In this document: positions 14,535 to 15,587 of the stretch, piece by piece
Layout: the number at the start of each line of letters is the position of its first letter
How positions within the stretch are numbered: position 1 is the first letter of the stretch
Source: SAR202 cluster bacterium
GTDB lineage: Bacteria; Chloroflexota; Dehalococcoidia; Lucifugimonadales; Australimonadaceae
NCBI GenBank assembly: GCA_016872415.1
Contig: VGZX01000003.1
Location: 3,118 to 67,117, forward strand
Reading direction: 5' to 3'
Length of the DNA: 64,000 nt
Notes under the pieces: generated by a model
Seen by the model: only the letters and a program-made list of their open reading frames with translations
Told to the model about the DNA's origin: nothing
Databases searched by the model: none
Made by a program: the position numbers and the translations under genes

Positions 14535-14882
14535 TTAGGCGCGCTGCTCGCCCGGCACGCTCACCAGCACGCGGCCGTCGCGCACCTCCGCCCGGTACGC
14601 CGCGGTATCGGTGGTGTAACGGTCGAGGCACTCGCCGGTGCGCAGGTCGAAGAGGGCGCCATGCTCCGGGCATTGCACCTTACCGGCGAACACCGCGCCG
14701 CCGGCGAGCGGGGCCAGCGCGTGCGGGCACTTGGCCTCGATCGCGTAGACGTCCTTGCCATCCCAGAACAGCGCGATCTCGTGGTAGCCGCGTGCGGGAT
14801 GGCGGAAATCGAATGTCTTGGTGCCCCAACGCTTGATGTCGTCCAGCGAGCAGAGGTCGAAGACATCGGCGCCGGTGCCCAT
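14535..14882 (-). CDS. Rieske [2Fe-2S] ferredoxin (copy C)
   Basis: CPH...CPEHGALFDLRTG; the ATG at 14882 aligns with the starts of the paralogs. Confidence 0.9.
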   Translation of the reverse strand: MGTGADVFDLCSLDDIKRWGTKTFDFRHPARGYHEIALFWDGKDVYAIEAKCPHALAPLAGGAVFAGKVQCPEHGALFDLRTGECLDRYTTDTAAYRAEVRDGRVLVSVPGEQRA

Positions 14883-14886
14883 GGCG

Positions 14887-15234
14887 CTAGACCCTCGTCT
14901 CACCCGGCGCGATGACGTGGACACGGCCGTCGCGGACCTCGGCCCGGTATGCCGTGGTGTCGGTGGTGTAGTGGTCCAGGCACTTGCCGGTACGCAAATC
15001 GAATAACGCCCCGTGGCCCTGGCAGCGGACGGTGCCATTGCTGGGTGTCGTGCCTTCCAAGGGCCAGAAAGTGTGGGGACAGGCATTCTCGATGGCATGT
15101 ACCTCCGCGCCGTAGAGGAAGACGGCGATCTCGTGCTCGCCGAACCGAGGGTGGTTGAAGGCGAAGGCCTTCGAGCCCCATTGCCTGAGCTCTTCCAGCG
15201 AGCAGACATCGAACGCGCCGGGTTCGGAGGCCAT
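14887..15234 (-). CDS. Rieske [2Fe-2S] ferredoxin (copy B)
   Basis: CPH...CQGHGALFDLRTG; start MASEPGAFDV at 15234. Confidence 0.9.
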   Translation of the reverse strand: MASEPGAFDVCSLEELRQWGSKAFAFNHPRFGEHEIAVFLYGAEVHAIENACPHTFWPLEGTTPSNGTVRCQGHGALFDLRTGKCLDHYTTDTTAYRAEVRDGRVHVIAPGETRV

Positions 15235-15239
15235 GCAGG

Positions 15240-15587
15240 TCACGCCCTCGTCTCGCCGGGGGCAATGATGTAGACGCGGCCGTTTTCGACCTTGGTTTGG
15301 TAGGCCTGCGTGTCGATGGTGAAGCGGTCGAGGCAGGCGCCCGTCGCCAGGTCGAAGATTGCTCCATGGGATGGGCACGTGACGCGGCCGCGCTCGATGG
15401 GGCCGTTCGCCAACGAAGCGAACAGGTGCGGGCAGAGGTTCTCCAACCCGTAGACCGTGGAGCCATCCCAGAACACCGCGATCTCGTGCAAGCCGAACTC
15501 GGGATGGCGGAAGTCGAACGCCTTGGCGCCGGCGGCCTTGAGCTCTTCCAGCGAGCACACGTCGAACATGCTGGTGGTCGTGGACAT
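15240..15587 (-). CDS. Rieske [2Fe-2S] ferredoxin (copy A)
   Basis: CPH...CPSHGAIFDLATG; GGAG RBS. Confidence 0.9.
   Translation of the reverse strand: MSTTTSMFDVCSLEELKAAGAKAFDFRHPEFGLHEIAVFWDGSTVYGLENLCPHLFASLANGPIERGRVTCPSHGAIFDLATGACLDRFTIDTQAYQTKVENGRVYIIAPGETRA

Follow-up and report, generated by a model that had tools for sequence, protein, structure and literature searches.

Three Rieske ferredoxin genes stand head to tail at positions 14535-15587, on the minus strand, of the 64,000-nucleotide stretch of contig VGZX01000003.1 analyzed here (the window), directly behind the accC and accB genes of a biotin-dependent carboxylase. We will show that this triplet is an old and real array of tandem paralogs, and that it represents a lineage-specific tandem triplication of a single-copy family-core gene that is fixed behind accC-accB. 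As to function, we give a somewhat better than even chance to the reading that this triplication provides a soluble electron shuttle to scattered Rieske oxygenases, split into three isoforms. The triplet is best seen as a familiar protein type in an unusual arrangement rather than as a new system.

The source genome (2.0 Mb in 106 contigs, 93% complete) is a metagenome-assembled genome of the class Dehalococcoidia, family UBA2963 (Candidatus Australimonadaceae). Candidatus Australimonas brisbanensis is the type of the order and family called o__/f__UBA2963 in GTDB, which have been renamed Australimonadales/-aceae (PMC11758582). The UBA2963 Dehalococcoidia have large sets of Rieske oxygenases and are thought to attack recalcitrant organic matter with them, and no canonical reductase or ferredoxin genes adjoin the oxygenase genes. 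A single-copy Rieske ferredoxin that occurs family-wide is a concrete and testable candidate for a shared electron donor, and its triplicated, diverged form constitutes a natural experiment on the specialization of ferredoxin isoforms. If it were true that the gene works with the biotin carboxylase instead, this would be a new kind of partnership.

Results and Discussion

The three tandem genes

Copy A (15240-15587), copy B (14887-15234) and copy C (14535-14882), all on the minus strand, each consist of 115 codons and a stop, and all three open reading frames are intact. The spacer between A and B is 5 nucleotides long and that between B and C is 4 nucleotides. The accB stop at 15630 is separated from the start of copy A by a gap of 42 nucleotides (15588-15629, minus strand), in which a GGGAG ribosome-binding site can be read directly, 10 nucleotides before the ATG. 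The ribosome-binding sites of copies B and C (GAGACGAGGG) sit within the coding sequence of the copy in front of them, in its conserved PGETR tail. What is repeated is thus the 348-nucleotide gene together with its 4-5-nucleotide spacer, and copies B and C are each predicted to be translationally coupled to the copy before them through the embedded site.

The translations of all three copies match the Pfam Rieske model PF00355, with an E-value of 4.3e-13 for copy A and scores of 41.5-49.4 bits for the three copies versus a gathering threshold of 20.3, as well as PF13806 (Rieske_2), with 39.7-47.1 bits versus a threshold of 27. The proteins align without gaps at 56-59% amino acid identity (63-65% at the nucleotide level). 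They keep the cluster ligands C52-x-H54 and C71-x-x-H74, which in the form C52-P-H54 and C71-x-x-H74 are invariant in 24 of 24 UBA2963 family sequences, and they share an N-terminal motif, FDxCSLxxLxxxGxKxFxFxHPxxGxHEIAxF, and a C-terminal one, LDxxTxDTxAY...PGE. The ligand loops read CPHLFASL/CPSH in copy A, CPHTFWPL/CQGH in copy B and CPHALAPL/CPEH in copy C. Besides the two ligand cysteines, C85, which is part of a TGxC motif, is invariant in all 24 family sequences, most of which also have C11; for this pair, a second disulfide, a contact to a metal or a redox switch may be considered.

A preliminary description of the stretch had reported three tandem 115-residue Rieske frames lying 4-5 nucleotides apart, with ligands and both motifs kept, with divergent ligand loops, with an identical stretch common to copies A and B, and with no oxygenase in the window. 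The coordinates and translations obtained here agree with it on all of these points, and the only Rieske matches on the 74-kb contig are the triplet itself, with no Rieske oxygenase among its genes. The stretch common to A and B was verified as a 19-nucleotide identical run (TGCTCGCTGGAAGAGCTCA) that covers the conserved C-S-L-E-E-L motif. Because this motif is conserved and the genome is strongly codon-biased, with third-position G+C (GC3) values of 0.84-0.90 in the copies as in the adjoining genes, the identity is only weakly beyond expectation.

The preliminary description had also considered that the triplet might be an assembly duplication, with near-identical copies found in one assembly only. 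This can be excluded, as the copies have the low identities given above, and as the complete array of the biotin carboxyl carrier protein (BCCP) gene followed by three Rieske genes recurs at 100% identity on two further contigs, one from Logan (SRR7990526) and one from a JGI metagenome (3300020193). The protein sequence of copy B was likewise found, in identical form, on two other assemblies. With a simple Nei-Gojobori count, the pairwise dS values are ca 0.75-1.3 and the dN values 0.33-0.41, corresponding to an omega of 0.25-0.54, which at this level of treatment is a crude estimate.

Distribution in the family and beyond

The family set used for comparison contains 57 genomes from 18 genera, and a match was counted at E <= 1e-20. 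By this measure the accB-linked Rieske gene is present in 54 of the 57 genomes, including all 42 of those that are of high quality. Exactly one copy was found in 52 of the 54, two in the genome labeled G004, and three in the window's genome, which is the only one of its genus in the set and the only one of the 57 with three divergent tandem copies.

In G004, the whole accC-accB-Rieske-amidase region is present twice, in inverted orientation and with 99.9% identity over at least 2.9 kb (L013, G004:C3:915000-927500, and L027, G004:C3:2624000-2636500), and the second of these lies 12 kb from the contig end. This pair is likely either an assembly artefact or a very recent segmental duplication; a pair of divergent paralogs is ruled out by the near-perfect inverted repeat close to a contig end.

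In 52 of the 54 genomes the Rieske gene is directly preceded by the BCCP gene, which has the same orientation, with gaps of ca 2-150 nucleotides. The exceptions are G051, where the two genes are separated by ca 4 kb, and G017, where the contig breaks. The order accC-accB-Rieske is invariant in the 32 family loci that were fetched (32/32). The flanks vary: uvrA follows the Rieske gene in ca 22 of the 32 loci, and hisF-HAD-hisIE precede the core in some genera only. An accC-BCCP-Rieske order was also found on an unrelated metagenome contig. The synteny check proposed in the preliminary description has hence a two-part outcome, namely that the gene order is kept in nearly all genomes of the family and that the triplet itself is seen, among the 57, in the window's genome only.

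Outside the family the picture is different. In the other families of the order, recO-accC-accB is succeeded by unrelated genes and the Rieske gene is missing from this place, and even the best matches to the window protein are weak in these families (1e-5 to 1e-11). When 1.84 billion cluster representatives were searched exhaustively with HMMER, only about 6 clusters came out better than 1e-23 and were followed by generic Rieske matches near 1e-14, and this sharp drop indicates that the accB-linked subfamily is narrow. Word-index homolog searches returned 2 and 5 proteins. Among 5.8 billion sequences, no protein closer than 61% to copy C was found, the window's own excepted.

Protein type and proposed function

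The preliminary description had identified the products as soluble Rieske ferredoxins, and this identity is borne out by the nearest solved relatives, which by profile and by fold alike are ferredoxin components of oxygenases. With a family-only profile, the best match is the ferredoxin of nitrotoluene dioxygenase (5bok, 6e-15), and NahAb (2qpz, 3e-13), CarAc (1vck, 8e-12) and the S. yanoikuyae B1 ferredoxin (2i7f, 7e-11) come after it, with 3gce falling within the range of 6e-15 to 7e-11. NirD is matched more weakly than these oxygenase ferredoxins (2e-7), and the high-potential Rieske structures give weak profile matches only. The AlphaFold 2 (AF2) model of copy A, with a pLDDT of 95.0 and a pTM of 0.87, has the Rieske beta-sandwich fold. 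When it is compared with the PDB by Foldseek, the top matches are all Rieske proteins, and ranks 1-17 are taken by oxygenase ferredoxins. The best of them, at TM values of ca 0.72-0.77, are CarAc (also in complex with its oxygenase), the ferredoxins of the nitrotoluene and naphthalene dioxygenases, and that of S. yanoikuyae B1.

The three proteins have no hydrophobic anchor, and their loops follow the patterns CPHxxxxL and C[PQ]xH, without the cysteines of CxHxGC/CxCH. Of the features of high-potential Rieske subunits (cytochrome bc1/b6f, arsenite oxidase), neither a membrane anchor or Tat signal nor the loop disulfide cysteines were found. The net charge of all three is acidic, as is usual for ferredoxins, and a comparison of surface charge does not separate the copies from one another. 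In these respects they are like CarAc (1vck, 2de5), NahAb (2qpz), 5bok and BphA3/BphF (2e4p, 1fqt), which are soluble and acidic proteins of ca 105-115 residues with CxH...CxxH ligands and no loop disulfide. They differ from the CarAc/NahAb/BphF-type ferredoxins in sequence, the identities being 25-31%, and in having an N-terminal FDLCSLEEL...FxFxHPxxGxHEIAVFWDG segment and the invariant C85. Their genes differ too, in that they adjoin no oxygenase or reductase gene, have a fixed position after accC-accB, and are triplicated.

Possible partners are found elsewhere in the genome. There are 28 Rieske-domain matches in total: 21 oxygenase alpha subunits or fragments, the triplet, three other stand-alone ferredoxins and one 586-residue fusion protein. 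Some of the alpha subunits are NDO-like (PF00848), for example at C1:12511-12762, and some resemble the homotrimeric hydroxylases of the CarAa/OxoO type (PF11723), with a CarAa-like example at C95:1705-1956. That the oxygenases would be encoded elsewhere, as the preliminary description had proposed, fits with this count, since none of the ca 21 genes and fragments is near the triplet. Large Rieske oxygenase-like reading frames are present in every family genome inspected, and an expansion of ring-hydroxylating dioxygenases in marine Chloroflexota is on record (PMC6946804). The three other stand-alone Rieske ferredoxins (107-118 residues; C9:48551-48904, C15 ~19462-19815 and C39:15430-15750, all minus strand) are encoded among metabolic genes (thiolase, GlpX, enoyl-CoA hydratase), and none of them lies beside an oxygenase.

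Within 9 kb of the [2Fe-2S] ferredoxin and FNR genes of this genome there is no oxygenase gene, although several of the oxygenase contigs are short. Plant-type Fer2 domains occur four times, in a formate-dehydrogenase-like protein, two CoxS-like subunits and a succinate dehydrogenase-type subunit, and none is in a small soluble ferredoxin. The Rieske ferredoxins are hence the only small [2Fe-2S] carriers available to the ca 21 oxygenases, which are without linked electron-transfer genes. A PDR-type reductase (FNR + Fer2) was not found in the genome, and the flavoprotein candidates are an Fpr-like FNR, Lpd and a mercuric-reductase-like protein. The Fpr-like protein, which has no Fer2 domain, is the single member of the FNR family (C1:52376-53146). 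Its gene (256 residues) comes directly after that of a 951-residue formate-dehydrogenase/NuoG-like protein with an N-terminal plant-type 2Fe-2S domain (C1:49481-53146 for the two, plus strand).

We consider an electron-shuttle role to oxygenases to be the most likely function of the three proteins. Each of them would hold one cluster on C52/H54/C71/H74 and would take up single electrons from an NAD(P)H-dependent flavoprotein, for which the Fpr-like gene is the only FNR-family candidate. The electron would then be passed to the Rieske centres of the ca 21 scattered Rieske non-haem-iron oxygenase alpha subunits, both the CarAa/OxoO-like homotrimeric ones and the NDO-like ones.

Such an arrangement would mirror that of sphingomonads, for which it has been shown by experiment that oxygenases scattered over the genome draw on a small number of shared, unlinked ferredoxins and reductases (PMC12319509). 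In S. yanoikuyae B1 (BphA3/BphA4) and R. wittichii RW1 (Fdx1/Fdx3, RedA1/RedA2), the oxygenases are likewise scattered, the few ferredoxin genes are located elsewhere, and there are several interchangeable ferredoxin paralogs per genome (PMC12319509). The B1 ferredoxin, 2i7f, is itself among the profile and fold matches of the window family. The two cases are not the same, however. In the sphingomonads the sharing is established experimentally and the reductases are known, whereas in the window genome we infer the sharing, and the sphingomonad paralogs are dispersed, whereas those of the window form a tandem, translationally coupled array.

A number of observations weigh against the proposed role. 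In none of the genomes examined is the triplet, or an ortholog of it, linked to an oxygenase or reductase gene, and the conserved neighbors accC, accB and uvrA are housekeeping genes and not catabolic ones. Of the 57 family genomes, 56 lack the BphA4-type reductase domain PF14759. The NCBIfam equivalog cut-offs for HcaC, AndAb and MocE are not reached (36-53 bits versus 113-150), so that copies A, B and C belong to an unnamed clade of ferredoxin-type Rieske proteins. The nearest relatives outside the family but within the class Dehalococcoidia are the N-terminal domains of Rieske fusion proteins of 575-630 residues (family profile E-values of 1e-25 to 1e-17). It is also possible that the oxygenases are in reality served by the three other stand-alone Rieske ferredoxins. 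Finally, relatives with a single copy have 17-19 PF00848 genes (G045, G056, G010) or at least 44 (G007), which means that oxygenase number does not explain the triplication. Of the dedicated ferredoxin bank for oxygenases that the preliminary description had envisaged, the ferredoxin type and the unlinked oxygenases are supported, but a bank required by many oxygenases is not, given these oxygenase-rich, single-copy relatives; the three further Rieske ferredoxins and the housekeeping neighbors also speak against it.

Another option is that the proteins act as carriers or accessory subunits for a non-oxygenase enzyme, such as a siroheme sulfite/nitrite reductase (in the manner of NirD), a cytochrome P450 or a desaturase. 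NirD (2jza, 4aiv; TIGR02378) shares with the three copies a Rieske fold of the same size, a match to Rieske_2, which is a NirD-like model and matches all three, and the TGxC motif, whose invariant C85 is common to NirD-like proteins and to tandem-Rieske nitrite-reductase fusions (P0009, P0010). The genome also encodes a ferredoxin-dependent NIR_SIR protein (C40:10598-12523), and the core housekeeping context of the gene would suit an assimilatory role. However, the accB-linked Rieske gene is retained in four high-quality family genomes (G022, G008, G009 and G010, making up two whole genera) from which the NIR_SIR domain is entirely absent. The copies reach only 38.8-46.3 bits with the NirD model TIGR02378, versus its cut-off of 74.65, the NirD structures rank below the oxygenase ferredoxins in both the profile and the fold searches, and no NirB-type gene is adjacent. 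We therefore regard a non-oxygenase partner as unlikely and retain the electron shuttle to oxygenases as the preferred function.

Divergence of the copies

A maximum-likelihood tree in which the three copies were combined with 21 orthologs was used to examine the history of the array. Copies B and C form a sister clade with a support of 93/90, and all three copies form one clade in the best tree, where the support is weak (71/0). Ancient paralogy, or transfer from other genera, is unsupported given this single clade, weakly supported as it is. Copy B has the longest terminal branch in the tree (0.75). Departures from conserved ortholog residues, counted over the 38 columns in which a residue is at least 85% conserved among the orthologs, amount to 2 for A, 4 for C and 5 for B. 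The changes in copy B are W40L, D41Y, G62T, P72Q and L73G, and all four of its cluster ligands are retained. Copy A, at the ancestral position directly after accB, is the least derived, and copy B the most derived. In the simplest reading of these data, two successive tandem duplications took place in this lineage, giving ((B,C),A), and were followed by long divergence under what would be purifying selection.

Some of the differences are located close to the cluster. L73, directly before the second histidine ligand, is leucine in 90% of the orthologs and Ser, Gly and Glu in A, B and C, respectively, and copy B has in addition replaced P72. Single-copy orthologs, too, vary in the loop that follows the first CPH motif. 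The ligand-loop divergence noted in the preliminary description is therefore copy-specific at L73 in all three copies and at P72 in copy B, but not at the other loop positions. For the electron shuttle favored here, this post-duplication divergence (L73 to S/G/E, together with the other four changes of copy B) may have resulted in three isoforms with different potentials or partner preferences.

The triplication could also have taken place without any differentiation of function, copies B and C being redundant, through dosage or neutral drift, and heading for loss. The triplet is indeed confined to one sampled population, and copy C has no relative closer than 61% in the large-scale search described above. 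The accelerated branch of copy B, with several family-conserved residues lost, points in the same direction, and the other family genomes manage with one copy, the near-identical G004 duplicate apart. On the other hand, at the dS values found the copies are old, and they nevertheless keep their 115 codons, the four ligands, C85, the ribosome-binding sites and 33-36 of the 38 conserved residues. The omega values, crude as they are, point to purifying selection, and duplicates maintained for dosage would be expected to stay similar or to vanish rather than to persist at 57% identity. Plain redundancy is thus unlikely in our judgment.

The accC-accB neighborhood

Immediately upstream of the triplet, accB (15630-16055, minus strand) encodes a BCCP of 141 residues, counted from the ATG, with an MKM biotinylation motif and a Pfam Biotin_lipoyl match of 1.9e-17. 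Before it comes accC (16058-17548, minus strand), whose 496-residue product is a biotin carboxylase with the Pfam domains Biotin_carb_N, CPSase_L_D2 and Biotin_carb_C and with a score of 605 bits for NCBIfam NF006367, against a cut-off of 597. The accC, accB and carboxyltransferase genes are each single in the genome (accB gives a single tblastn match), and the carboxyltransferase is unlinked, at C17:8987-10447. As this is the only set of biotin carboxylase, BCCP and carboxyltransferase, the neighborhood belongs to an ordinary housekeeping acyl-CoA carboxylase, with no redox role indicated.

A sequence scan of the gap from accB to copy A returned neither a promoter-like nor a terminator-like site. 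On the other side of the triplet, in the interval from copy C to uvrA, a terminator-like G+C hairpin followed by UUUU is located at 14443-14475 (minus strand). It falls below the 5-T requirement of the terminator scan, and the minus-strand fold of 14410-14540 has an energy of -56.8 kcal/mol (z = -2.35). This hairpin may end the accC-accB-Rieske transcription unit. With no promoter or terminator in front of copy A and a hairpin behind copy C, co-transcription of the triplet with accC-accB is likely, and as an electron shuttle the three genes would probably be expressed constitutively together with the housekeeping accC-accB.

The fixed position of the gene invites the proposal that the Rieske protein works with the upstream biotin-dependent carboxylase, as a redox sensor or regulator or as a subunit of a redox-coupled carboxylation, with the trio as a functional unit. 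The accC-accB-Rieske core is invariant while its flanks, hisF-HAD-hisIE and uvrA, vary, the Rieske gene follows accB closely (2-150 nucleotides), and the transcription signals just described fall where they would be expected for one unit. Moreover, the Rieske subfamily is confined to UBA2963, and the other families of the order have recO-accC-accB without it. Against this stand the single, ordinary carboxylase set with its unlinked carboxyltransferase, the gap of ca 4 kb between accB and the Rieske gene in G051, and the fold and profile results, which indicate a free electron-shuttle ferredoxin. Synteny within one family can, in addition, persist by descent, and uvrA is also kept adjacent in most genomes. 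We know of no biotin carboxylase that needs an iron-sulfur partner. Of the electron-transfer role tied to accC/accB that the preliminary description had raised, the gene order is retained and nothing beyond it, and we consider such a role quite improbable. The stronger version, in which the trio, constant throughout the 18 genera of UBA2963 and perhaps ending in a terminator of its own, is a unit whose Rieske protein senses the redox state or relays it to the sole biotin-dependent carboxylase, or takes part in redox-coupled carboxylation, with three copies to tune the control, is highly improbable.

Other multi-Rieske arrangements and neighboring genes

The preliminary description knew of no described triplicated array like this one. 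The triplet is indeed alone of its kind among the 57 family genomes, but related arrangements do exist. Two adjacent Rieske-ferredoxin-like modules were found in 8 of 64 unrelated loci, mostly from Alphaproteobacteria (L046, L066, L071, L073, L075, L080, L086 and L092; at approximately positions 3640-4310 in most of them and at 180-780 in L066). The protein P0007, of 362 residues, has three Rieske domains, and P0009 and P0010 are nitrite/sulfite-reductase-like proteins with two N-terminal Rieske domains. Multiplication of the Rieske module is hence not new in kind, and what is particular here is a diverged three-gene array derived from a family-core gene behind accC-accB.

The fusion protein of the window's own genome has 586 residues (C5:40305-42065, minus strand), with an N-terminal Rieske domain and an all-helical domain of ca 470 residues. 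For the latter, there is no match in Pfam or NCBIfam and none in the PDB by sequence or by Foldseek, and its AF2 model is a confident one, with a pLDDT of 85. In particular, a resemblance to BTG13/DUF4243 dioxygenases emerged neither from the PDB profile search nor among the first 50 Foldseek matches in the PDB. Members of the fusion-protein family number more than 7,800, are spread across phyla at 53-63% identity, and share many invariant His, Asp and Glu residues. Fusions of this size (ca 580 residues) resemble the window proteins with ca 40% identity over residues 34-108, but their second ligand motif is CHWH instead of CP(L)H, and their Rieske domain is joined to the helical domain, whereas the window proteins are free-standing.

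Downstream of the triplet comes uvrA (11374-14415, minus strand). The TTG at 14415 is its likely start codon, in preference to the first in-frame one at 14493, a choice that is supported by the gene calls on L109 and L110 and by the N-terminal sequence. Farther along the same strand there are two adjacent paralogous reading frames of 227 and 215 residues, at 9878-10561 and 10592-11239, with the motif LF(D/E)AIYT.RA.RKLRHD, and a reading frame similar to this pair is found near the amidase gene in the relative G004.

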